DNA of 64,000 nucleotides, taken from assembly GCA_945787715.1 (NCBI GenBank), contig CALZJE010000003.1:6088-70087 (forward strand), read 5' to 3'. The notes under the pieces are model-generated. The model was not told the origin of the DNA. It worked only from the letters and a program-made list of their open reading frames with translations, and ran no database searches. The position numbers were made by a program, and so were the translations under genes. The stretch comes from an uncultured Ectothiorhodospiraceae bacterium (GTDB lineage Bacteria > Pseudomonadota > Gammaproteobacteria > S012-40). Shown one piece after another: positions 17,423-30,085 of this stretch (the stretch's first letter is position 1; each line of letters begins with the position of its first letter).

Positions 17423-17438
17423 TGGCATATGTAATGCT
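17423..17438 (+). promoter_or_regulatory. Sigma-54 (-24/-12) promoter of glnA
   Basis: TGGCAT-ATGTA-ATGCT with GG and GC exactly 12 nt apart, about 59 nt upstream of the glnA ATG. Confidence 0.7.
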
Positions 17439-17496: not shown

Positions 17497-18903
17497 ATGC
17501 CGTCTAACGTTTTAAAGATGATGAAAGAATTTGAAGTGAAGTTTGTTGATTTTCGCTTCTCAGATACTCGCGGTAAACAAATGCATTTAACAGTTCCAAG
17601 TACAGCTGTTGATGAAGATTCATTAAAAGAAGGGATGATGTTTGATGGTTCTTCAATCAATGGTTGGAAGGGCATCAATGAGTCAGACATGATTTTGATG
17701 CCAGATCCAAGTACTGCGACAATGGATCCTTTCACTGAAGATTCAACGTTAAACATCGTATGTGATGTTGTTGAGCCAGCCACTATGTCTGGTTATGAGC
17801 GTGATCCTCGTTCTGTTGCTAAACGTGCAGAAGAATTTTTGAAATCTACAGGTATTGCAGATACCGCTTTCTTCGGTCCTGAAAATGAGTTTTTTGTGCT
17901 TGATGACGTTCGTTGGGGTGCTGATATGTCAGGCTCTTTTTGTAAAATAGATTCAGAAGAAGCAGAGTGGAACTCAGAAAAAGTTTATGCCGACGGTAAC
18001 ATGGGCCATCGTCCAGGTACTAAAGGCGGTTACTTCCCAGTACCACCAGTCGATTCTTTGTATGACTTGCGCTGTGCTATGACTACTGCGCTTCAGGAAA
18101 TGGGGCAAGAAGTTGAAGTGCATCATCATGAAGTAGCAACAGCTGGTCAATGTGAGATTGGTGTTAAATTCAACACATTAGTTTCAAAAGCTGACGAAGT
18201 TCAAGATCTAAAATATGTAATTCATAATGTATCGCATGTATATGGCAAGACAGCGACTTTTATGCCTAAGCCGATGGTTGGCGATAATGGTAATGGTATG
18301 CATGTTCACATGTCTCTTGCAAAAAATGGCGAGAATCTTTTTTCTGGTGATGAGTACGGTGGTCTATCTGAAACTGCACTTTTCTACATTGGTGGAATTA
18401 TTAAACATGCGCGTGCAATCAATGCTTTCGCAAATGCTTCGACAAATAGCTACAAACGTTTGGTCCCAGGATTTGAAGCACCAGTTATGCTAGCTTACTC
18501 TGCACGTAATCGTTCTGCTTCTATTCGTATTCCTTATGTCACAAACCCTAAAGGGCGTCGTATCGAAGTACGATTTCCCGATTCAACAGCAAACCCCTAT
18601 TTAGCGTTTGCTTGTATGTTGATGGCTGGTCTTGATGGAATTAAGAACAAAATCCATCCTGGTGATGCAATGGATAAAGATCTATACGATCTTCCACCAG
18701 AAGAAGAGAAAGAGATCCCACAAGTATGTTTTTCTTTCGATCAAGCATTAGAAGCACTAGATAAAGATCGTGAATTTTTAACTGCTGGTGGTGTATTTAC
18801 TGACGACATGATCGATGCTTATATTGATTTGAAAATGGAAGAAGTAACACGTTTACGCATGACAACTCACCCAGTTGAGTTTGATATGTACTATAGCTGT
18901 TAA
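17497..18903 (+). CDS. glnA: Glutamine synthetase type I
   Basis: 468 aa. [15 protein letters not shown], the [19 protein letters not shown] motif, the adenylylation-loop region NLYDLPPEE and ASIRIP. Confidence 0.97.
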
Positions 18904-19758: not shown

Positions 19759-20886
19759 ATGGTCGATGCGTCTTTTATTGGTTTAACTATTGCAGAGAAG
19801 TTAAATATGGTGCCGAACGAAAAGTGTAATAATTCAATATCAAAAGATTTGCTATACGCAAATATGTCTACAGCGTTGTTGCTGTTAGATGCAAATATGA
19901 AAGTTGTTGAAGCGAATCAAGCGACTGAAAATTTGCTCAATACCAGTGCAAGGCGAATTAAAGGTCTAGATGTTCATCAATTATTTGCAGGATCAGAAGC
20001 CTTTTTAAGTGCGCTCAAGCAAAGTAAGAATAATAAATTCAATGTCACTAAAAGCGAATTAGATCTACTCGTTCCTCATCTGTTACGTGTCATCAAAGTT
20101 GATTGTATTTTTTCACCAATCATCGAAAACGAACAAATTTTGATTGAGATGACGCAAATAGATGAAAAATTACGCGCGGCCAAAGAAGAGCATATTATTG
20201 AGCAGCAGGATGTTTTAAAAATATTGGTGAGAGGTTTTGCTCATGAGGTAAAAAATCCTCTCGGCGGAATTAGAGGCGCCGCACAATTACTTGAACGTGA
20301 GTTACCCTTCGATGATTTGAAAGAATATACCGACGTTATTATTGGTGAAACTGATCGCTTGCAAAAGTTGGTTGATGACATGCTGGGTCCAAATCGACCG
20401 ATGTCTAAAGAACCTGTCAATATACACAAGGTAATCGAACGAGTTCGTCAACTTGTTTTAGCTGAATCGGATGGAAAGTTGATATTCCGTCGCGATTATG
20501 ACCCAAGCTTACCGGAGATTTTTGCAGATTCAGATCAACTCATTCAATCCGTTTTGAATATAGTTCGTAACGCTAAGCAAGCAATGAATGGTGAAGGCGA
20601 AATTGTTGTTCGAACACGTTCAAGACACCATGTAATGATTGGACAAAGACATCATCGCTTGGTTGTTGGTGTAGAAATTATTGATAACGGGCCAGGGATT
20701 GCGCCTGATCTTTTAGACAAAATATTTTATCCAATGATTACCGGTCGTGCTGAAGGTACTGGGCTAGGTTTATCAATAGCCCAGACATTGATTGGCCAAC
20801 ACGGCGGTATTATTGAATGTAATAGCAAGCCTGGAGAAACAAACTTTACGTTGTTGATTCCAATTAATGCTAAGGAAACGGTGTAA
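19759..20886 (+). CDS. ntrB: Nitrogen regulation sensor histidine kinase NtrB
   Basis: N-terminal PAS domain, H-box FAHEVKNPLGGIRGAAQLL, N/G boxes IVRNAKQA and DNGPGI..GTGLGLSI. Directly precedes ntrC. Confidence 0.9.
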   Translation: MVDASFIGLTIAEKLNMVPNEKCNNSISKDLLYANMSTALLLLDANMKVVEANQATENLLNTSARRIKGLDVHQLFAGSEAFLSALKQSKNNKFNVTKSELDLLVPHLLRVIKVDCIFSPIIENEQILIEMTQIDEKLRAAKEEHIIEQQDVLKILVRGFAHEVKNPLGGIRGAAQLLERELPFDDLKEYTDVIIGETDRLQKLVDDMLGPNRPMSKEPVNIHKVIERVRQLVLAESDGKLIFRRDYDPSLPEIFADSDQLIQSVLNIVRNAKQAMNGEGEIVVRTRSRHHVMIGQRHHRLVVGVEIIDNGPGIAPDLLDKIFYPMITGRAEGTGLGLSIAQTLIGQHGGIIECNSKPGETNFTLLIPINAKETV

Positions 20887-20891
20887 ATATA

Positions 20892-22307
20892 ATGGCAAAA
20901 AAAGAACATATTTGGGTCATTGATGACGACAAATCAATTCGCTGGGTGTTAGAGCGTGCTTTAAGCAAAGCGGATATGGATGTTGATTGCTTTGAAAGCG
21001 CTTCAGGTATTCTCGATAAACTATCAAAAGGATTACCGGATGCGATAGTTTCGGATATTCGCATGCCAGGACAAGATGGTTTGGCGCTTCTTTCAGACAT
21101 TAATAAAGCTTATCCTGATCTCCCAGTAATCATTATGACGGCTCACTCCGATCTGGACAGTGCGGTATCGTCCTATGAAGGCGGTGCATTTGAATATTTG
21201 CCTAAACCCTTTGATGTTGACGATGCAGTTGATCTGGTAAGACGAGCAGTGGATCATAGTAGAAGTGCTACTACTAACGTCAGTGAACAAACTGAAGCTA
21301 CACAAACAGAAATTATTGGCGAAGCAGCAGCGATGCAGGAAGTGTTTCGAGCGATTGGGAGATTATCTCGTTCGAATATCACCGTTATGATAAATGGTGA
21401 ATCTGGGACGGGTAAGGAGCTTGTTGCGAGTGCACTTCATCGCCATAGTCCAAGAGCGTCTAATCCTTTTATCGCACTAAATACCGCTGCTATTCCAAAA
21501 GATTTATTGGAATCAGAACTATTTGGTCACGAAAGAGGTGCTTTTACTGGCGCGCAAACAACACGACGTGGCCGTTTTGAACAGGCTGATGGCGGAACAT
21601 TGTTTCTTGATGAAATTGGTGATATGCCCGCCGATTTACAAACTCGGCTTTTGCGGGTTTTAGCATCTGGAGAATTCTATCGGGTTGGTGGTCATGATCC
21701 CGTTAAAGTCAATGTTAGAATTATTGCAGCCACACACCAAGACCTGGAAGAGCGAGTAGGTAAAGGAAAATTCAGGGAAGACCTATTTCATCGTTTAAAT
21801 GTTATACGTATACATTTACCCGCCTTACGTGAAAGGCAAGAAGATATTCCACTATTGTTAAACTATTTTCTCGTTCGAGCAGCGAAGGAATTAAGTGTTG
21901 ATGTAAAAAGATTAAGGCCTGAAACTGCAAAGTTTTTGAGTCAGTTACAGTGGCCAGGTAATGTAAGACAGTTAGAAAATGTGTGCCGCTGGTTAACTGT
22001 GATGGCCCCAGGTCCTGAAATTCATGTAGAAGATCTTCCGGCGGAATTAAGAGAAGATGTGGTTAAAGCAAGCAGCAATTCTGATTGGGAAGGCGCTTTA
22101 AAGCTTTGGGCAAAAAGCAAGCTCTTGGCAGATGATCAAGGTATTATGGAGAATGCGACTCCCAGGTTCGAAAAAATATTGATAGAAGTTGCTTTAGCGC
22201 ATACCGCTGGGCGAAAACAGGAAGCTGCTAAATTGCTCGGAATTGGTAGAAATACACTGACGAGAAAGTTGAAAGAACTCAAAATAATTAGTGACGATGC
22301 AGCGTAA
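20892..22307 (+). CDS. ntrC: Nitrogen regulation response regulator NtrC (sigma-54 activator)
   Basis: Receiver domain (VIDDD..SDIRMPG..LPKP), AAA+ domain [14 protein letters not shown] loop, C-terminal Fis-type HTH. Confidence 0.93.
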
Positions 22308-22631
22308 CACTAGCTCCTGGCTATCTCCACTAACCGGTGAACTTGTACAGCAATCAAACCAATTCCTTGCACTCCAATCTCATACTCAACGGATCTTTTA
22401 AGATTTATCTTATCGGTTCCATTCCCGTATTAAACTTAGAAAAAAGTAGATTCATGAAATATACTCTGAGGGCTGTAACCCAACCCTTGTTTCGCCTAGC
22501 GATATGAAAAGCAATACTTTGTGTTTTTTTGATAGCCAGCTGCCTTTTCTAGGATAAGCCTAGAAAAATCAGTTGATCCGTGATTTAGCGCACAACCACT
22601 TGATTCACTTGGCAATATGAAAAGTATTTGA

Positions 22632-22648
22632 ATCACCAACCTGGTGAT
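22632..22648. promoter_or_regulatory. Perfect palindrome; enhancer (UAS) candidate
   Basis: ATCACCA-ACC-TGGTGAT, i.e. 7-3-7 with the same architecture as NtrC sites, located about 200 bp upstream of the sigma-54 promoter at 22837. Confidence 0.4.
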
Positions 22649-22736
22649 CATAAATATTTTCATTACGCCAATCAAACCGCACACTTGCATGCTAATTTCG
22701 CATCCAACAGATCTTTCTAGGTTAAACGTTTTTAGC

Positions 22737-22752
22737 GCGAAGTTTCCTTCGC
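22737..22752. promoter_or_regulatory. Second palindrome; enhancer (UAS) candidate
   Basis: GCGAAG-TTTC-CTTCGC, about 90 bp upstream of the -24 element. Related TTCGC motifs are at about 22707 (TTCGCATCC) and about 22790 (CTTCGCTTCGAA). Confidence 0.35.
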
Positions 22753-22836
22753 ATCAATTTACTTCATTATTCAAAAATACGAATCAATCTTCGCTTCGAA
22801 AACATTTAAGTCATTGTTTTATATATGTATTAATCT

Positions 22837-22852
22837 TGGCATTCATTCTGCT
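22837..22852 (+). promoter_or_regulatory. Sigma-54 (-24/-12) promoter of the five-gene cassette
   Basis: TGGCAT-TCATT-CTGCT with GG (22838-39) and GC (22850-51) 12 nt apart. It lies 56 nt upstream of ATG 22908, which has the SD AAAGGAG. Confidence 0.7.
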
Positions 22853-22907
22853 CCTATGCAAGAGATTAGTTTGATGTGATATTCAACCACGAATAAAGGA
22901 GAACAAC

Positions 22908-23627
22908 ATGCATGATTTAGATCAGACCCAACTCGATTATAGCCGTGCAGAGTTTGATGATGACGAGTTTGAGTTAGAAGGGGAGTTCGAAAATGATATG
23001 GCTGTGTCAGGTGCTGATGAATATGAGGATGAGGATGAGTTTGAAAGTGAATATGAGTTCGAATCCAACTTTGATGGAAACAGTCCTTTTAGTGAAGCAG
23101 AGGAAATGGAGCTTGCTGCGGAATTAATGGAAATTGCAGACGATGGGGAATTGGAATATTTTCTAGGTAGGCTGATTAAACGCGGCGCTCGACGGGTTGG
23201 TCGTAGGCTACGTAAACGTGTAGGTACACGGTTGAGAAAGGGGTTAAAAAGACTTGCTAAACGCGGTTTGAGATTCGCAGGTGGAGCTGTTGGTGGTGCG
23301 TTAGGTGGTCCTGTTGGAGCCGTGGTAGGACGAGCTGCGGGTCGTGGATTGGGAAAAGTGTTTGGACTTGAATTAGAAGGTATGAGTCTGGAAGACCAAG
23401 AGTTTGAAGCAGCGCGTCAATTTGTTCGGCTTGCAGGTGATGCTACCTCTACTGCAACAGCAATTCCCTCTTCTGTTAATGAAGAAGTTGTTGCTCACAA
23501 GGCGCTGAAAAGATCAGTGGTAAAATTTGCACCGGGACTCGCAGGTAAAACCAGACGCTCTGTTCGTGGAGAAAAATCTGGACGCTGGGTTCGTAAAGGT
23601 TCTAGCATCATTCTAATGGGTGTTTGA
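22908..23627 (+). CDS. Tripartite acidic / poly-cationic / glycine-zipper protein (candidate pro-toxin or pro-peptide)
   Basis: 239 aa. Residues 1-85 contain 35 D/E and one Arg (DEYEDEDEFESEYEFES). Residues 88-122 contain 18 R/K and no acidic residue (RLIKRGARRVGRRLRKRVGTRLRKGLKRLAKRGLR). Residues 123-153 contain 12 Gly (AGGAVGGALGGPVGAVVGRAAGRGLGKVFG). The tail is basic (..GRWVRKGSSIILMGV). Strong SD; first gene after the sigma-54 promoter. Confidence 0.7.
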   Translation: MHDLDQTQLDYSRAEFDDDEFELEGEFENDMAVSGADEYEDEDEFESEYEFESNFDGNSPFSEAEEMELAAELMEIADDGELEYFLGRLIKRGARRVGRRLRKRVGTRLRKGLKRLAKRGLRFAGGAVGGALGGPVGAVVGRAAGRGLGKVFGLELEGMSLEDQEFEAARQFVRLAGDATSTATAIPSSVNEEVVAHKALKRSVVKFAPGLAGKTRRSVRGEKSGRWVRKGSSIILMGV

Positions 23628-24946
23628 GTCCCATGACTACCCCGCTGGTACGACAAGTTCTGAGCAATGAGACTCAAGCACTGATGGCTCGTCTCAGAGG
23701 AATTAAGCCGTTTTCCTTACATGTGCCGATGGTTGCTGCCGCTGCTTTGCAAACTTCAGCTCAACAATTGATAGAGCAGCATATGCACAGGGTATTGTCG
23801 TCAGTCGCTCAGATGCTCGGAACATATGAAGACTGGTTAAATAGTGAGGCGGGGCGTCGAACCAAAGATGCCACTGCACAGCGACATCTAACACTGGTGA
23901 GATTGCGTTTCCATGCAGCATTGACGCAGTTTGATCTTTTTTCAGATGTACTTACTCAGCGTAGTGAACATGAGTTTGGTGTCTGGCTCGCTGGACTTGA
24001 TGCACTAGCAGTGGATGCATTAAAAATAGAAGGAAAATACTTCGAACTGCCAGGTGTCGCGTGTTATCTAGATCGAGGAATAGGTGCTGCTATTCGACGG
24101 GTACGTACACGCTTACCTGGCGGGCGTGAAAATCCTGTTGCTATAATTCGAGTTCCTCGTGAGCGGATGATTGGCTCAGGCATCGCTTCATCGTTGGTTC
24201 ATGAAGTCGGGCATCAGGGTGCTGCGTTGCTAAACCTTGTGGAATCATTACGAAAGGAATTGCAGAGAAAAATTCATTCTGACGGATCGCCGTGGCGTTT
24301 ATGGCAACAATGGATATCAGAAATCATTGCTGACTTTTGGTCTGTAGCGCAGATCGGTGTGGGTTCTACTTTGGGTTTAATGGGTGTTGTTAGCTTACCG
24401 CGTGCATTTGTATTTAGAATTAGTGAAGAGGATCCTCATCCTTCACCGTGGATACGAGTCATGTTGAGTGCATCGATTGGCCAAGCCCTTTATCCGGATT
24501 CTCAATGGCGTCGTCTTCGTGAAGTTTGGATGCGTCTTTATCCGCGCACAGGTATCGATCCGGAAAAGGAACAACTGTTTCAAGGTTTGGAAGCTACGAT
24601 ACAGGAGTTTGTTGAGTTATTAACTCAACATCGGCCACGAACACTAGAAGGGATATCATTGTTAGAAATTTTCCCTGTTTCAGATAGACAACCAGATCGG
24701 TTAAGAAACTTATATGGTCAATGGTCAGGGAGGTTTAACGCTTGGCGCACCTCGTCCCCGGCGTTAGCGTTTGCCGTTATCGGACAAGCACGCGCTGATG
24801 ATCGACTAAGTGTATCAGATGAATCGAATCTTATTAATAGACTATTAAACCATTGGGCATTCAATCGAAATGATTTAAATAATCAATGCGGATGTAGACC
24901 TAAGGCGAATGCATATTCAACTGCAGTTATATCTACTGCGTTATAA
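23624..24946 (+). CDS. Orphan HExxH (gluzincin-like) putative metallopeptidase
   Basis: 440 aa. SSLVHEVGHQG (H193-H197, nt 24200-24214) with a candidate third ligand E233 in WISEIIADFW. The TTG 23624 / ATG 23633 start overlaps or abuts the upstream stop, which suggests translational coupling. Confidence 0.55.
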   Translation: MSPMTTPLVRQVLSNETQALMARLRGIKPFSLHVPMVAAAALQTSAQQLIEQHMHRVLSSVAQMLGTYEDWLNSEAGRRTKDATAQRHLTLVRLRFHAALTQFDLFSDVLTQRSEHEFGVWLAGLDALAVDALKIEGKYFELPGVACYLDRGIGAAIRRVRTRLPGGRENPVAIIRVPRERMIGSGIASSLVHEVGHQGAALLNLVESLRKELQRKIHSDGSPWRLWQQWISEIIADFWSVAQIGVGSTLGLMGVVSLPRAFVFRISEEDPHPSPWIRVMLSASIGQALYPDSQWRRLREVWMRLYPRTGIDPEKEQLFQGLEATIQEFVELLTQHRPRTLEGISLLEIFPVSDRQPDRLRNLYGQWSGRFNAWRTSSPALAFAVIGQARADDRLSVSDESNLINRLLNHWAFNRNDLNNQCGCRPKANAYSTAVISTAL

Positions 24947-24957
24947 GGAGTCTTGTA

Positions 24958-26826
24958 ATGAAACAAATAGATAATATATCGATTATACAATCTCACCATG
25001 CCGTAGTGCCGGACGGTGCAGTTTCTCTACGCTTATCAGAGAACTATGTAGATGTAACAAAGTACACATATATTTGGCGTACTCCTGAATCGTTGGGTGA
25101 GTTTAATTATATTGATCAACCCAATGTTATATGGACCGCTCCATTAAAAGCAGCAGGTGTGGTAGAAATAAGCGTAGAGATTATGCCTAAAAGCGGACAG
25201 AGTGGAGGTAAGAAACGCAATACACGTGCTTCATCGGAAAATTCCACGGCTGAATCTACACATCTCGAAAATATAGAGACAATAATCATCTCAACTACGG
25301 TGGAAGTTACGCCAAATGCTTTGCCTTTAGATGTAGTTGGTGCGATTGGAGAAGGTGTTAAGGCTATCAAAGAGGGTCTACCCGGTCAGGAAATACGTTT
25401 GGAGCGACAATTTCCTGCGCTTACGCCTCAAAAATCATTGTGGGCTATTATTCGCGACCGTACCAATGCAATTTCATTTAACAATTACAAAGCATTTATC
25501 GACTCGATTATGTGTGGCGGTGATACCTATCACAGCAAACAGATTCCCCATGAAGTTAAAGAATATGTCAATTTTGATCCGAGTAAATTGCACTACCGAG
25601 GTACCGAGTCGTATGAGGTTTTACGAAAAGCGACAGAAGCATTTCTGATGCATGAAATTGGTGCTTTACCCACTCCCGTAAATGAATCTGAAAAATTTCC
25701 CTTAGCAGACCCTGCTGAACAAAAACGGCGTTTACCACAACTCGCGGGTTCAAATGACGAAGAAGTTCAAATGGAAATGGAAAGTAATCGAACTGAATAT
25801 TTAAAAACATTGGAAGACGAAAGTCGGACCTTTCCTTATTTTAAACTTATCCGCGATCGTTTAAGTGAGATACCCCTTAAACCTCCTGGCTCATCAGGAG
25901 AAGGATGTTATGGATTATTGCGTTCGCGAATTTCACCACCAATTTTACTAGAATTAATCTGGTCTTATTGGCACGAAGAAGGAGGTTTGGTGCAAACAAT
26001 GAAAGCCATTAATATGCGCTTTCAGAACCGTTTATATAATCCACGTAAAAATGGGAGCGATCCGTTGGCTAATCTTAACTTGGATCCGTTACGTCCTATG
26101 AGCAATATTATTTGGGGATATATTCAAAATGAGCACGAGCATTTAACGTTATCAAGACGCGCTTATGAATACGATCATCATTATGGATTCAGTATCGCCG
26201 GAAAGGCAGTACCCAAACTCAACTCTGCCGATAGCCGTACTAAATTTTTAGAGGCGTTTCACAGTCTTCTTCATCGTGCCTCGGTGTTTTACAAAGAGCA
26301 ATCTGATACAACTAAAGTACCCGATGGTTATCCGTTGCTAAATGGATTGAAGGAATGTCATTTGTTGCTGGCTGAAGGTGCACATAACCAATTTGGTGAT
26401 TTACCCTGGACAGCGCGTATTGAAATGCTCATCGAGCAATGGATGTTAGCGCGGCCAGAAACACGGAATTTTTTGAACCGACGAGTGATGGTGCCTTACT
26501 CAGAAGAGTGGATGCCAGCGGTTGATCAAATGAAAGACTTGCAAGGTTGGTCAGGTGGTACCGTGCGTCATTTTCGAGATCTAGGAACGTTCGGTGAACA
26601 AATCTTGTTGTCAGTACGTTATGGAGATTGGAGTGAAAATTTTAATGAAGATGAAGCCAAAATCTGGGCTCAGTATTGGCGACAGGAGATTCAAGGTTAT
26701 ATCAATGCGTATCGTTCAGTAACGAGTGTAGACTTGGGATCGGATGCAGATCTGGCAAATGCTACGCTATCTCGTCAACGATCGACTGCACCTGCCGAGT
26801 TATTGAAACAGCAAGGTACTCGTTGA
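24958..26826 (+). CDS. Large hypothetical protein, no recognisable domain
   Basis: 622-aa uninterrupted ORF with SD AAGGAG 7 nt upstream. An N-terminal ~75-aa beta-rich module and a Ser/Gly/Lys linker are followed by a Trp/His-rich helical body (LLELIWSYWHEEGGLVQTMKAINMRFQN). Confidence 0.6.
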   Translation: MKQIDNISIIQSHHAVVPDGAVSLRLSENYVDVTKYTYIWRTPESLGEFNYIDQPNVIWTAPLKAAGVVEISVEIMPKSGQSGGKKRNTRASSENSTAESTHLENIETIIISTTVEVTPNALPLDVVGAIGEGVKAIKEGLPGQEIRLERQFPALTPQKSLWAIIRDRTNAISFNNYKAFIDSIMCGGDTYHSKQIPHEVKEYVNFDPSKLHYRGTESYEVLRKATEAFLMHEIGALPTPVNESEKFPLADPAEQKRRLPQLAGSNDEEVQMEMESNRTEYLKTLEDESRTFPYFKLIRDRLSEIPLKPPGSSGEGCYGLLRSRISPPILLELIWSYWHEEGGLVQTMKAINMRFQNRLYNPRKNGSDPLANLNLDPLRPMSNIIWGYIQNEHEHLTLSRRAYEYDHHYGFSIAGKAVPKLNSADSRTKFLEAFHSLLHRASVFYKEQSDTTKVPDGYPLLNGLKECHLLLAEGAHNQFGDLPWTARIEMLIEQWMLARPETRNFLNRRVMVPYSEEWMPAVDQMKDLQGWSGGTVRHFRDLGTFGEQILLSVRYGDWSENFNEDEAKIWAQYWRQEIQGYINAYRSVTSVDLGSDADLANATLSRQRSTAPAELLKQQGTR

Positions 26827-26863
26827 TGCCCATGTTTCACCTCAACTCTTACTACTAGGAGGG

Positions 26864-27694
26864 ATGATAATGTTTGAAGATGGAGATTACGATGATTTAC
26901 GTGAGGAAAAGTTTCTGAACTGGCCAGAAAGGAACAGACCTCCACGCCTAAAAAGTCGGATTGCTGCCCTACATCGTTCTTATTCGCCTGATCCAGTAGG
27001 TCGGGTTCAGCGTAATAACTCAATACGATCAAAAGATGATATGGTGGAATTTAATTTTTCAGGTTTAGAAGTAGACGGATTTATTTCACGAGAGGTAGAA
27101 GATGAACAGTTTCTAAATTATTTATGGCCATTCTCATCAGATCCCAATATTGTGGATCGCACAGCTTATTCACCTAAGTCTAAGCGAAAGAAAATTCGAG
27201 ATATTGATACAGTTTATGCACTGGTTTTACATCAAGCAGGCTTTAGTCGTGGAAATGATCCTAAAAAATATAATAATGTGACTTCTCATTTTGTCATTAT
27301 GCCAAACGGAACTATTCTTCAACTCCACCCTTTGACTGCCTATTTATATTCTTCCAATGGGTTTAATCGGGGTAGTGTAGCTGTTGAATTTATCGGTAAT
27401 TTTCCTAGCGAGCGTGGCAGATGCTGGAAACCTGAAAAGTATGGTTGTAATCAGGTTTCAAACGATCAAATTGAGGCAGGTCGACAATTAATTAGATATT
27501 TAAGGAAAAAAATAGGGCTGACTCACGTGTTGGCGCACCGTCAATCGAGTGGTTCGAGAGGCAATGATCCGGGGCCAGACCTTTGGCACCAAGTTGGGCA
27601 ATGGGGTGTAAATAAGCTAGGGCTAAATGATGGGGGGCATGGTTTTAAAATTCAGTCGGGTAAGGCAATTCCTGATTCATGGCGTAAAACTTAG
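26864..27694 (+). CDS. N-acetylmuramoyl-L-alanine amidase, amidase_2 (AmpD/PGRP/T7-lysozyme) fold, no signal peptide
   Basis: YALVLHQAGFS (first His ligand), GSVAVEFIGNF, and LAHRQSSGSRGNDPGPDLW (His, then Asp 10 residues later, followed by DPGP). About 110 aa of unassigned N-terminal extension precede the domain. The likely start is ATG 26870, downstream of AGGAGG. Confidence 0.8.
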   Translation: MIMFEDGDYDDLREEKFLNWPERNRPPRLKSRIAALHRSYSPDPVGRVQRNNSIRSKDDMVEFNFSGLEVDGFISREVEDEQFLNYLWPFSSDPNIVDRTAYSPKSKRKKIRDIDTVYALVLHQAGFSRGNDPKKYNNVTSHFVIMPNGTILQLHPLTAYLYSSNGFNRGSVAVEFIGNFPSERGRCWKPEKYGCNQVSNDQIEAGRQLIRYLRKKIGLTHVLAHRQSSGSRGNDPGPDLWHQVGQWGVNKLGLNDGGHGFKIQSGKAIPDSWRKT

Positions 27695-27730
27695 ATCGAA
27701 AAACCATTAAATATAATCATTGAAGGAAAA

Positions 27731-28645
27731 TTGGTGAGAGATATGAGGTCTTATGAAGAACTAAGTAGAGTTTCCCATGAAAATGGCAAAGATAAAGAGT
27801 TTTATTATAAGTCGAAGGTTAGACCGGTTTCTAATTCTATGGGTGATTTTAGTCAACAGGAAATTGTTGACGATTTTGACGATAGAAAAAGACTTGGCAG
27901 TATCAAAGATACACCTTATAGGTGGATATGCATGCTGGATTTGCACACAAAAAGTGGATTATTTGGTGGGACTGGAGTACTCATTTCCCCCAGACACATT
28001 CTTACGGCTGGGCATAACCTAGATGGTTGTAATAAAGTAGTAGTGGTGCCTGGAATTAATGGTCGCTTCAAGCCATTTGGAAGTTACGAATCTACAACGA
28101 TGATTGCCCACGATAAATGGAAAAAACATAGAGACGATAATTTTGATATTGGCATGATAAAACTTTCCAAACCGGTTGGGAATCAAAGGTTTAATTCAAT
28201 AAAGGGAAATGTTCTGGGTCATTGGGGACATTCTGCTTTCGGAATGGGTACGAGAATTATACCATTTGTGCAGAGCAATCAATTAAACAAAAAAGCAAAT
28301 ATTGCTGGTTATCCAAGTGATAAAGGATTTACGCAGCTTTGGTGGGATGCGGGTAAAATTGTCAATACCGCGCCTGCCAAAGCATCAGGAGCAATCTATT
28401 ACACTATGGATACATGTGGTGCTCAAAGTGGAAGTCCAGTTTGGTTAAGAAGTAAAAGTTCAGGAGCAAGATTTTTAATTGCTATACATAGTGGTCCATG
28501 TTTATTAGATGGCTCAGATTGCAAAGAATTATCTGGAAAGCTTTGTCCCGGTAGTAGTTTACGTAAACCACACTCTTCTAATATGGGGGTATTTTTAACA
28601 GCGGGACTAATTAAGACGATTAGAAGTTGGATTCGCTCTATGTAA
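27731..28645 (+). CDS. S1B (V8-like, COG3591-type) trypsin-fold serine endopeptidase, no signal peptide
   Basis: Catalytic triad contexts ILTAGHNL (His), NFDIGMIKL (Asp) and DTCGAQSGSPVW (Ser, GxSGSPV as in V8/SspA). The likely start is ATG 27746. Confidence 0.8.
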   Translation: MVRDMRSYEELSRVSHENGKDKEFYYKSKVRPVSNSMGDFSQQEIVDDFDDRKRLGSIKDTPYRWICMLDLHTKSGLFGGTGVLISPRHILTAGHNLDGCNKVVVVPGINGRFKPFGSYESTTMIAHDKWKKHRDDNFDIGMIKLSKPVGNQRFNSIKGNVLGHWGHSAFGMGTRIIPFVQSNQLNKKANIAGYPSDKGFTQLWWDAGKIVNTAPAKASGAIYYTMDTCGAQSGSPVWLRSKSSGARFLIAIHSGPCLLDGSDCKELSGKLCPGSSLRKPHSSNMGVFLTAGLIKTIRSWIRSM

Positions 28646-28735
28646 TCGCTATTAGAAATAATACCAAACAAATTTGTTCAACGTTATAAGTATTAAAGGT
28701 TTCGATAACTAACAAGTAAGTGTATTAATGACAGT

Positions 28736-30085
28736 TTATGAATGATTTTCTTGTTGCTTGCGCAACTGTAGCGCTCGCGGCGTAATTTTTAATTGCTTTG
28801 CAATCTTCGCGGTAGAGCCATTATGTTCAGCCATAGCAACATCGATAGCAACATCGGCGGCAGCACTACTAATTTCTTTTAAGCCCACGCCCAGTGAGAG
28901 TGCTTTACGAACAGCGGCTTCAAGATCTCCACGGCGCCAGTCACTCGTTTCTCTTGTGATGTTTTGAAATTCATCGTGGGGTATATCACCGATCGTATAT
29001 TGGCCGTCGCAAACATGACGGCCTCGCATGCGTAAGCAAAGCTGTCGAAGATCACGAATATTACCAGGATAAGCACGATTAATGAGATGGTGCTGTACGG
29101 CTGAGTCGAGTTCTGGATTTATATCATTTTGATGACGGAGGAAATGTTTAGCTAACGATAGAATGTCTTCCTTACGTTGTGAAAGTGATGGCAGCGTAAC
29201 GGTCCAATCTGCGAGACGGTAATAAAGATCACGGCGAAAACGCCCTGCTTCAATTTCTTCTAATAAATTTCGATTTGTAGCGCAGACTAGTCTGAAATCG
29301 GTGTCATGCCATGTGTTGCCACCGACTCGTTTGTAACGTTTTTCTTGAAAAACGCGTAGCAGTTGCACTTGAAGATCCAATGGCAACTCGCCGACTTCGT
29401 CTAGAAATAAGACACCACCGTCGGCCCGCGAAAATGCTCCTTCACGTTGACTACCTGCTCCGGTAAAAGCACCGCGCTCGTGACCAAAAAATTCACTGCC
29501 AGATAGGCTTGGGACAATGGTGGCACAATCTACTATGCTAAGTTCCTGCTGACTACGCAGAGGATCTACGGAATGAATAACTTTTGCAGCGAGTTCTTTT
29601 CCTGTTCCCGTTTCACCGTTAATTAAAACTGCATAATCACTAAATCTCGCGGCTTCAACAATTTGCCTTAAGGCCATTAGCCAAGGTATGCTGTGGCCAA
29701 TGACGATATCTTGTATTTCTGGGGAATTAGTGATTTTATTTACTCTCTCCCAACGACGAAGACGTACTGCAATATGGTCAGCTGTTTTACCTTCGTTGTC
29801 CCATAAGACGACGTCACTCGCGCCAGCTTCAATCAAACGATATACATCGTTACTATTTAGGTAGTCTGGGTTTGTGGTTACTGCGATAACGCGCTGTTGG
29901 GTTCTACAAGAGAATTTAGAAATACAGCTATATACATTGTCATCGGCATGATCGAATACGATAATCGCGGCTTTCGCATTATCTTTTGTATCGTCAATAC
30001 AAAAAATCACGCCTCGATTAATGAGGATTTGATGGATCGAATCGCGATTCACTACACCCAAGCAATTTAGGACTGTCCGTGTCAT
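28736..30085 (-). CDS. Sigma-54-dependent transcriptional activator (bEBP) with atypical receiver-like N-domain
   Basis: AAA+ domain with GETGTGKE, an intact GAFTGA loop ([13 protein letters not shown]), Walker B LFLDEVGEL, and a C-terminal HTH (STAKIAKQLKITPRALQLR). The N-terminal ~120 aa are receiver-like, but VLWD replaces the K-P motif. Convergent with the cassette. Confidence 0.9.
   Translation of the reverse strand: MTRTVLNCLGVVNRDSIHQILINRGVIFCIDDTKDNAKAAIIVFDHADDNVYSCISKFSCRTQQRVIAVTTNPDYLNSNDVYRLIEAGASDVVLWDNEGKTADHIAVRLRRWERVNKITNSPEIQDIVIGHSIPWLMALRQIVEAARFSDYAVLINGETGTGKELAAKVIHSVDPLRSQQELSIVDCATIVPSLSGSEFFGHERGAFTGAGSQREGAFSRADGGVLFLDEVGELPLDLQVQLLRVFQEKRYKRVGGNTWHDTDFRLVCATNRNLLEEIEAGRFRRDLYYRLADWTVTLPSLSQRKEDILSLAKHFLRHQNDINPELDSAVQHHLINRAYPGNIRDLRQLCLRMRGRHVCDGQYTIGDIPHDEFQNITRETSDWRRGDLEAAVRKALSLGVGLKEISSAAADVAIDVAMAEHNGSTAKIAKQLKITPRALQLRKQQENHS

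Follow-up and report, generated by a model that had tools for sequence, protein, structure and literature searches.

What does a large bacterial protein do when no family library recognizes it? The question is raised by p3, a protein of 622 amino acids (aa) encoded in a stretch of DNA of 64,000 nucleotides (nt). This whole stretch is called the window here, and coordinates refer to it unless a related locus is named. Its gene is the third of five, p1 to p5, that run in the same direction and make up one block. The protein is an obligate, soluble, cytoplasmic core component of a gene cassette, and is translationally coupled to a candidate metallopeptidase, p2. Both p3 and the cassette are new, as far as the searched resources show. 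In the model developed below, p1, p2 and p3 would be the invariant core of a cassette that spreads horizontally. A σ54 promoter and its activator would keep this cassette locked, and its output would be directed against the cell envelope. The features of the p3 gene are as follows.

24945–24950, plus strand: Shine–Dalgarno sequence AAGGAG of p3, read from the sequence; it shares bases with the p2 stop codon and precedes the ATG by 7 nt
24958–26826, plus strand: p3, 622 aa, soluble, without a known family; third gene of the block
24958–25311, plus strand: p3 residues 1–118, immunoglobulin (Ig)-like β-sandwich with a disordered loop, from the predicted structure
25390–26823, plus strand: p3 residues 145–622, conserved all-α body of 23 helices, from the predicted structure

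The p3 protein and its family

The p3 gene is real and not a chance open reading frame (ORF), because more than 4,451 homologues exist and NCBI holds an identical protein. The homologues, retrieved by a word-indexed search, are all labelled 'hypothetical'. An initial annotation of the DNA had described uninterrupted coding and a clean ribosome-binding site, and both descriptions hold: translation runs unbroken from an ATG start, and AAGGAG stands at the expected distance. The peptides quoted there are all present in the translation, namely IWTAPLKAAGVVEISVEIMPK (residues 58–78), LLELIWSYWHEEGGLVQTMKAINMRFQN (330–357), EYDHHYGFSIAGK (404–416) and HNQFGDLPWTARIEMLIEQWM (476–496).

The same annotation saw no recognizable domain in p3, and systematic searches agree. 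Neither the single sequence nor a 43-sequence profile gave a match in four hidden Markov model (HMM) libraries, Pfam (E ≤ 1), NCBIfam, PADLOC and PHROGs, or among PDB sequences. When 43 and 62 family members were scanned one by one, at E ≤ 5 and E ≤ 0.01, the only matches were to β-sandwich domains at the N-terminus (CarboxypepD_reg in 10 of 62, PKD and Ig), plus scattered noise. No search by profile or by structure tied the p3 body to a characterized family; a confident tie of this kind, to a family unrelated to the neighbouring genes, is what the initial annotation had named as speaking against its view of the protein. A comparison of p2 with p3 by hhalign gave a probability of 0.3%, which rules out that the two are paralogues. 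Membrane segments were likewise missing, as first noted: the highest Kyte–Doolittle mean over 19 residues is 1.27, and a signal peptide is also absent. Among 265 relatives, a signal peptide or transmembrane (TM) segment was called in 11, mostly on internal amphipathic stretches.

The family is large and widely distributed. An exhaustive search of representatives gave at least 1,378 clusters (50% identity) at E ≤ 1e-3 and 682 at E ≤ 1e-30, and at least 578 matches were confirmed in a set of one genome per species. Hosts span at least nine phyla: Actinomycetota, Acidobacteriota, Bacteroidota, Pseudomonadota, Planctomycetota, Verrucomicrobiota, Chloroflexota, Clostridia and Myxococcota. Genera include Hymenobacter (Bacteroidota) and Massilia, Nitrosomonas and Cupriavidus (Pseudomonadota). 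Across these phyla the homologues are about 45–50% identical to p3, and over residues ~145–620 the range is 41–57%. The N-terminus is variable, with 0–260 extra residues, and many members of 472–512 aa have no N-domain at all. An alignment of 265 sequences holds 45 positions conserved in at least 98%, among them E332, Y337, E340, Q346, R354, N357, R400, R401, E404, Y405, Y409, R427, H435, N477, Q478, R487, E489, E516, E547, R554, Y581 and Y585. Glu, Arg, Tyr, Asn, Gln or His occupy 23 of the 45 positions, and Trp six more. The invariant motifs of the body are ELIWSYWxEE, RFQN, DPLRP, RRxxEYxHxYG, GAHNQxGD and MVxYxExWM. The body had been called rich in Trp, His and Tyr. Its composition is only moderately so (W 2.3%, Y 4.4%, H 2.9%); the description fits the 45 invariant positions better, six of which are Trp and six Tyr. 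Such a pattern of conserved polar and aromatic residues would fit a site of binding or catalysis better than a passive scaffold.

The predicted structure refines the domain layout. A β-rich module followed by a helical body had been proposed, and that order is essentially right, except that the β domain occupies residues 1–118 and so extends beyond residue ~75. The Ser/Gly/Lys-rich stretch, taken at first for a linker, is modelled differently: residues ~78–108 are predicted to form a disordered loop within the β-sandwich (predicted local distance difference test, pLDDT, below 50 at 82–104), because strand 109–117 packs back onto the N-domain. The connector of N-domain and body in the prediction is a helix at residues 124–139. 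The N-domain is a seven-stranded Ig-like β-sandwich that superposes on PKD, intimin and MSP domains. For the body of 478 residues no structural neighbour was found, although the prediction is confident, and comparison with solved structures and known folds returned no similar PDB chain. Two motifs, E404-x-x-H407 and E432-x-x-H435, sit on neighbouring helices of the body; H435 is conserved in at least 98% and H407 in ~95% of the family. The pattern applied for a ferritin-like or di-iron protein was two E-x-x-H motifs with two further carboxylates on a four-helix bundle.

A conserved p1–p2–p3 core

Which partners does p3 keep? From its relatives 89 loci were gathered, and the first 87, including three duplicate records, were analysed with phmmer using the window proteins as queries. 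The genes of the block are as follows.

22908–23627, plus strand: p1, 239 aa, first gene of the co-directional block
23624–24946, plus strand: p2, 440 aa, HEVGH, candidate gluzincin-type metallopeptidase, from HExxH and invariant residues
26864–27694, plus strand: p4, 276 aa, leaderless N-acetylmuramoyl-L-alanine amidase (Amidase_2; Pfam PF01510 4.4e-12; PHROG endolysin 6.9e-12)
27731–28645, plus strand: p5, 304 aa, leaderless trypsin-like serine protease (Pfam PF00089 2.2e-9; PF13365 3.4e-7)

p3 was present in 87/87 loci, p2 in 84/87, upstream of p3, and p1 in 81/87; a σ54-dependent enhancer-binding protein (EBP) was found in 62/87, a trypsin-like protease in 15/87 and an amidase in 7/87. The loci without p1 or p2 are truncated contigs. 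A reciprocal start from p2 homologues gave the same picture. The order there is p1, sometimes a second p1, p2, a Pfam-less protein of 542–776 aa, accessory genes, Amidohydro_2, and an EBP on the opposite strand; the Pfam-less protein, next after p2, was equated with p3 by its position. The initial annotation had supposed p3 to be the functional core or scaffold of its cassette, or else an enzyme that modifies p1, and had held that homologues mostly outside this gene context would count against the idea. That is clearly not the distribution seen, because p3 co-occurs with p2 and p1 across the 87 loci and the p2-based check agrees. Its emphasis on p3 lying between HExxH gene and amidase fares less well: amidase and trypsin-like protease are variable accessories. 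Apart from p2, p1 is the sole universal partner of p3, and it is the sole universal candidate substrate.

The block is compact. In the window the p2 start overlaps the p1 stop and 11 nt separate p2 from p3; junctions in two related loci (L002 and L003) overlap by 4–8 nt. All five products, p1 to p5, are without signal peptide and without TM segment. Housekeeping genes flank the block, with glnA-ntrB-ntrC upstream and an SpoU methylase (trmL-like), gpsA and secB downstream. G+C content is 0.41–0.43 across the cassette (22001–30000) against 0.36–0.39 in both flanks, a slight rise that is compatible with an acquired island. Integrases, transposases and toxin–antitoxin genes adjoin related loci, and these neighbours, together with the G+C contrast, are consistent with horizontal mobility. 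Scans of the sequence for σ70 promoters and intrinsic terminators gave no enrichment over shuffles.

The candidate peptidase p2 has 5,431 homologues of ~440 aa, all 'hypothetical' and without a Pfam domain. It is about 50–55% identical across the same nine-phylum range as p3. In 44 sequences H193-E194-x-x-H197, E233 and D237 are invariant. This is a gluzincin pattern, HExxH with a downstream Glu ligand, and marks p2 as a candidate metallopeptidase.

p1 is a charge-segregated protein. Residues 1–80 are acidic (net charge −32), and residues 81–150 are cationic and amphipathic (net +19, 24% Gly). The C-terminal module is conserved and ends GRWxRRGxxIxLxG; the N-terminus, MHDIDRT..., is likewise strongly conserved. 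The gene occurs in at least two copies in 57/81 loci, sometimes with two or three modules fused in tandem, and homologues, of which P0416 and P0480 are examples, are often tandem-duplicated proteins of ~400–450 aa. Two loci (L074:10810-12753 and L086) encode a fusion in which a p1-like module follows PG_binding_1. p1 itself has no significant Pfam match. Some homologues match PF23135 TRI4_N over an EMELAAELLEV..ELDQFLG motif; the origin of that Pfam name could not be traced in the literature. Profiles of p1 and p2 found nothing useful in the PDB.

σ54 control of the cassette

How is the block switched on? Three elements of the window bear on this point.

22837–22852, plus strand: candidate σ54-type −24/−12 promoter TGGCATTCATTCTGCT (TGGCAT-N5-CTGCT), by pattern match, ~55 nt upstream of the p1 ATG
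22486–22671, strand not assigned: candidate enhancer (EBP-binding) region, from a repeat search
28736–30085, minus strand: σ54-dependent EBP with a ~125-aa N-terminal domain, AAA+ domain and helix–turn–helix; Pfam Sigma54_activat 3.1e-56; convergent with the operon

The window operon has both marks of σ54 control, a −24 GG/−12 GC element and a cognate AAA+ EBP. Measured against TGGCAC-N5-TTGCA, the element retains both cores, GG and GC, and reaches 8/11. Related loci score higher: the best element upstream of the first p1 reaches at least 9/11 in 63/78 and at least 10/11 in 45/78. Only 63 sites of at least 10/11 exist in 2.48 Mb searched on both strands, and 45 of them lie upstream of the first p1. 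The enhancer candidate comprises a 26-nt direct repeat, whose copies at 22486–22511 and 22599–22624 are 113 bp apart, and an imperfect palindrome of 30 nt (22609–22638/22642–22671). It lies ~170–350 bp upstream of the −24/−12 element, which is the usual distance of σ54 enhancers from their promoters, and the adjacent activator may bind these repeats. A further σ54-type element, TGGCATATGTAATGC at 17423–17437, stands ~60 nt upstream of glnA (17497–18903), near ntrB/ntrC (19759–22307); it is a usual glnA promoter dependent on NtrC and has nothing to do with the cassette.

The activator travels with the cassette. An orthologous EBP is encoded within 8 kb in the 62 loci counted above, mostly downstream and on the opposite strand, with phmmer E-values of 1e-96 to 1e-134 for full-length copies and weaker ones where a contig end cuts the gene. 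It was not found within this distance in 25/87 loci, partly since contigs end there. The protein scores best against RtcR/PspF-like models, and its ~125-aa N-terminal domain has no recognized sensor domain.

In some hosts the sigma factor itself appears to be part of the module. rpoN is found within the cassette or as its neighbour in 14 distinct loci, of which 13 are from Actinomycetota and one is from Chloroflexia; examples are L042:4987-6309, L034:3481-4929, L040:3821-5008, L003:3157-4518 and L048:2962-4509. Sigma54_CBD plus Sigma54_DBD were confirmed in five of the 14 genes. Hosts include Nocardiopsis, Rhodococcus rhodnii, Kibdelosporangium, Rhizocola, and metagenome-assembled genomes of Solirubrobacterales and Gaiellaceae. 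Cassettes that carry rpoN also have the EBP and a good −24/−12 promoter. According to published surveys, σ54 is almost completely missing from Actinomycetota (PMC12316311; PMC3162934). Given this linkage in a σ54-poor phylum, the cassette therefore appears to bring its own sigma factor, along with its activator and promoter. Such a self-carried switch is the arrangement to be expected for a product that must be kept fully off until triggered.

Accessory genes and an N-terminal tag

The genes that follow p3 fall into two groups. Group (a) consists of untagged enzymes: directly after p3 there is a BioF-like Aminotran_1_2 protein in 38/84 loci, an Amidohydro_2 protein in 33/84 and an M20 peptidase in 13/84. 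The BioF-like enzyme, which is pyridoxal phosphate-dependent, carries the N-terminal motif LDFTSALYLGLRHPS; Amidohydro_2 follows further on, and M20 sometimes. Examples are L009:9729-10838, L002:11268-12056 and L019:7257-8708. The window holds no gene of these three types. Group (a) enzymes hint at small-molecule or peptide chemistry. In the larger cassettes they may add a chemical step or serve self-protection.

Group (b) is heterogeneous and comprises 59 clustered downstream proteins from 40 loci. Their domains are PG_binding_1 (34/59), PG_binding_3 (24), Trypsin (12), OmpA (9), Amidase_2 (6), VanY (5) and M74 (3), with CHAP, a single 3D domain, Patatin, PLD and DUF2272 in addition; M23 belongs to another small cluster of downstream proteins. 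The classes represented are amidases, endopeptidases, carboxypeptidases and lipases, and no recognized lysozyme or lytic-transglycosylase catalytic domain was seen among the 59.

Eighteen of the 59 share a short N-terminal tag, E-x-[EDQ]-P-F (for example, MNNPFAFEAEPFEVY). In 17 of these 18 it takes the form M-x6-E-x-[EDQ]-P-F, its first residue being the eighth counted from the closest Met upstream. The bearers are otherwise unrelated leaderless enzymes, such as PG_binding_1 fusions, trypsin-like proteases and an amidase (L045:10533-11753, L051:10644-12899, L057:12206-13336 and L015:10515-11360 are tagged examples). None of the 84 group (a) enzymes carries the tag, and among 2,420 ORFs 22 of its 25 occurrences lie downstream of p3 on the same strand. 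It has the look of a signal for targeting, recognition or cleavage. An MSP-like p3 N-domain that binds tags of the type 'two Phe in an acidic tract', by analogy with FFAT–VAP recognition, was considered as the reader and set aside; many family members are without that domain.

Proposed mechanism

p3 is tentatively proposed to be the large soluble partner of p2, the two together recognizing or maturing p1 and the tagged enzymes within a σ54-gated lysis or toxin cassette; the probability of this reading is put clearly below one half. The sequence of events would be as follows. (i) Upon a signal, the dedicated EBP would open the otherwise silent σ54 promoter. (ii) One translationally coupled operon would then yield p1, p2, p3 and the leaderless accessory enzymes, here an amidase and a trypsin-like protease. 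(iii) In the cytoplasm p2 and p3, perhaps as a complex, would act on p1 and, where present, on accessory enzymes with the N-terminal tag. p3 would provide a substrate-binding or second catalytic site through its invariant Glu/Arg/Tyr/Trp/Asn/Gln/His cluster, and proteolysis by p2 would strip the acidic N-terminal region from p1. (iv) The freed cationic, Gly-rich segment of p1 may permeabilize the membrane, so that the peptidoglycan hydrolases could reach the wall. The producer would lyse, or let out bacteriolytic proteins, or both.

Four observations weigh against this scheme. p1 has no TM segment, and its top 19-residue hydropathy, 1.36, falls within the Gly-rich segment. The ~40% of loci with group (a) enzymes are unexplained by a pure lysis model. 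In the window, p4 and p5 have acidic or aromatic N-termini but carry no E-x-[EDQ]-P-F tag. Finally, p3 is mildly acidic overall (pI 5.9) and is no obvious electrostatic binder of acidic tags.

A more general proposal is that p2 and p3 form an unrecognized protein-handling machine, shared by monoderms and diderms, that reads a fixed N-terminal tag and activates or releases a variable leaderless envelope-degrading arsenal plus a pro-form membrane-active protein under a private σ54 switch, which moves, sigma factor included, into phyla without σ54; p3 would found a new fold with a new activity. This is a real possibility, rated not far short of even.

Alternative explanations for p3

The alternative that survives best, though it is judged unlikely, makes p3 an enzyme of new fold that acts directly on envelope polymers, perhaps as a peptidoglycan hydrolase or lyase cleaving glycan strands. 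p3 would then supply a constant lytic activity to which the accessories add peptidase and amidase activities, and the N-terminal β-sandwich would be a module of the carbohydrate-binding type. The invariant set of p3 (7 Glu, 6 Arg, 6 Tyr, 6 Trp, 2 Asn and 2 Gln) fits this idea: such sets are typical of sugar-binding clefts, as in the active sites of carbohydrate-active enzymes. CarboxypepD_reg, PKD or Ig-type β-sandwiches such as those found as N-terminal extensions of the family are common on glycan-active enzymes. The lack of a recognized lysozyme or lytic-transglycosylase catalytic domain in group (b), where one 3D domain is the sole approach to them, also speaks for it.

Less probable again, and regarded as doubtful, is a maturation system resembling those of ribosomally synthesized and post-translationally modified peptides (RiPPs), with p1 proteins as precursors, p2 as leader peptidase, p3 as a novel modifying enzyme, and the BioF-like, Amidohydro_2 and M20 proteins in tailoring. 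p3 might be metal-dependent, given its two E-x-x-H motifs on neighbouring helices and the conservation of both histidines. The multiple p1 copies, the acidic p1 'leader', the strong conservation of both p1 termini and the group (a) genes directly after p3 all point the same way. The marks sought for a RiPP cluster were a recognized maturase or RRE domain and a short precursor whose leader is conserved and whose core varies. p1, unlike such precursors, exceeds 200 aa and is conserved from end to end, and RRE, YcaO, radical S-adenosylmethionine (rSAM) and Lan domains were found neither in the window nor in the Pfam-scanned related loci. The PG_binding_1 fusions, moreover, appear to place p1 functionally with envelope-directed proteins and not with small peptide precursors.

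An improbable third alternative has p3 as a self-assembling scaffold or particle subunit that gathers tagged hydrolases and p1. Lysis would free a bacteriolytic particle with the Ig-like N-domains facing outward to bind targets. A constant core with diversifying N-terminal β-sandwich domains (none, one or more), a tag at a fixed position on otherwise unrelated cargo-like enzymes, and a core without export machinery or membrane proteins would suit such a particle. p3, however, shows no likeness to HK97/encapsulin, bacterial microcompartment (BMC) or any other cage fold, its large share of invariant polar residues points to a site and not to a lattice, and the many short family members have no N-domain to display.

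Least probable of all is that p3 has no effector role but senses or regulates in trans, feeding back on the σ54 switch through the EBP: the activator is conserved with the cassette and has no recognized sensor domain of its own, and trans-acting regulators of σ54 activators have precedent in PspA on PspF and NifL on NifA, but p3 is encoded within the activated operon and coupled to p2, not with the EBP, a PAS, GAF or other sensor fold was not found in it, and the 25 loci without a nearby EBP, some of them cut by contig ends, also count against the idea.

Significance

The p3 family, for all its size and phylum range, is absent from every curated library searched, and its main domain is confidently predicted without a structural neighbour. 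It marks a self-contained module that appears to place the breakdown of the cell envelope under σ54 control. If this module is a device for programmed lysis, antibacterial action or anti-phage defence, it is a new one made of new protein folds. A literature search on σ54 with peptidoglycan or lysis, bacterial EBPs with defence, actinobacterial rpoN, and TRI4 found no description of the cassette. The cassette may also account for the rare rpoN genes of Actinomycetota, a phylum recently described as effectively without functional σ54 (PMC12316311). For applications it offers a portable and very tight transcriptional switch, together with a candidate short N-terminal protein-targeting tag. Each step of the proposed mechanism is testable by standard genetics and biochemistry.

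Comparison with known systems

Several origins can be set aside. No relatives were found in the 2.9 million viral contigs of IMG/VR, and a phage origin was rejected on this ground. A plasmid origin was rejected as only four megaplasmids or chromids carry the cassette. Membership of a known defence system was rejected, the PADLOC matches being just to the generic EBP and trypsin domains. Resemblance to Ig-like, PKD and MSP-type β-sandwich domains covers only the variable p3 N-domain and not the body of 478 residues, and encapsulin and microcompartment shells differ in that p3 has neither an HK97-like nor a BMC-domain fold.

Effector cassettes of type VI secretion systems (T6SSs) and extracellular contractile injection systems (eCISs) also combine a constant core with variable peptidoglycan amidases, peptidases and phospholipases, and a short N-terminal motif common to unrelated effectors. 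The core here, in contrast, consists of two soluble proteins. Genes for sheath, tube, baseplate, VgrG, PAAR and ATPase are absent in eleven distinct loci with Pfam gene tables, and T6SS/eCIS membership was rejected for this reason.

Closer likenesses are found in three systems. Psp-type σ54 envelope operons (PspF/PspA) likewise place a dedicated σ54 activator, here RtcR/PspF-like, beside an envelope-related operon. Unlike these, the cassette has no PspA/IM30 domain, its products would degrade and not protect the envelope, and it brings rpoN into Actinomycetota. Bacterial death operons of gasdermin plus protease share the logic of a pore-former candidate kept inactive by a terminal segment, with a neighbouring protease and an association with mobile islands. 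In the cassette, however, the inhibitory-looking region of p1 is N-terminal and acidic, the protease is of the HExxH type and not caspase-like or a subtilisin, and p3 has no counterpart there. No match to gasdermin systems was obtained by sequence search in Pfam or PADLOC. Holin–endolysin cassettes and 'type 10' lysis release resemble the cassette in co-transcribing leaderless peptidoglycan hydrolases with a small membrane-active candidate, here p1, and in working without a dedicated secretion apparatus; p4, an Amidase_2 protein with a PHROG endolysin match, is just such a hydrolase. They differ in that a holin has at least one TM domain and p1 to p5 contain no TM-like segment, that two large, highly conserved proteins of no known sequence family are obligatory here, namely p2 and p3, and that the cassette stands under σ54 and an EBP among housekeeping flanks, not among phage late genes. 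Taken together, these comparisons suggest that the cassette works most like a holin–endolysin or gasdermin–protease operon placed under a Psp-like σ54 switch, yet is a member of none of these systems.

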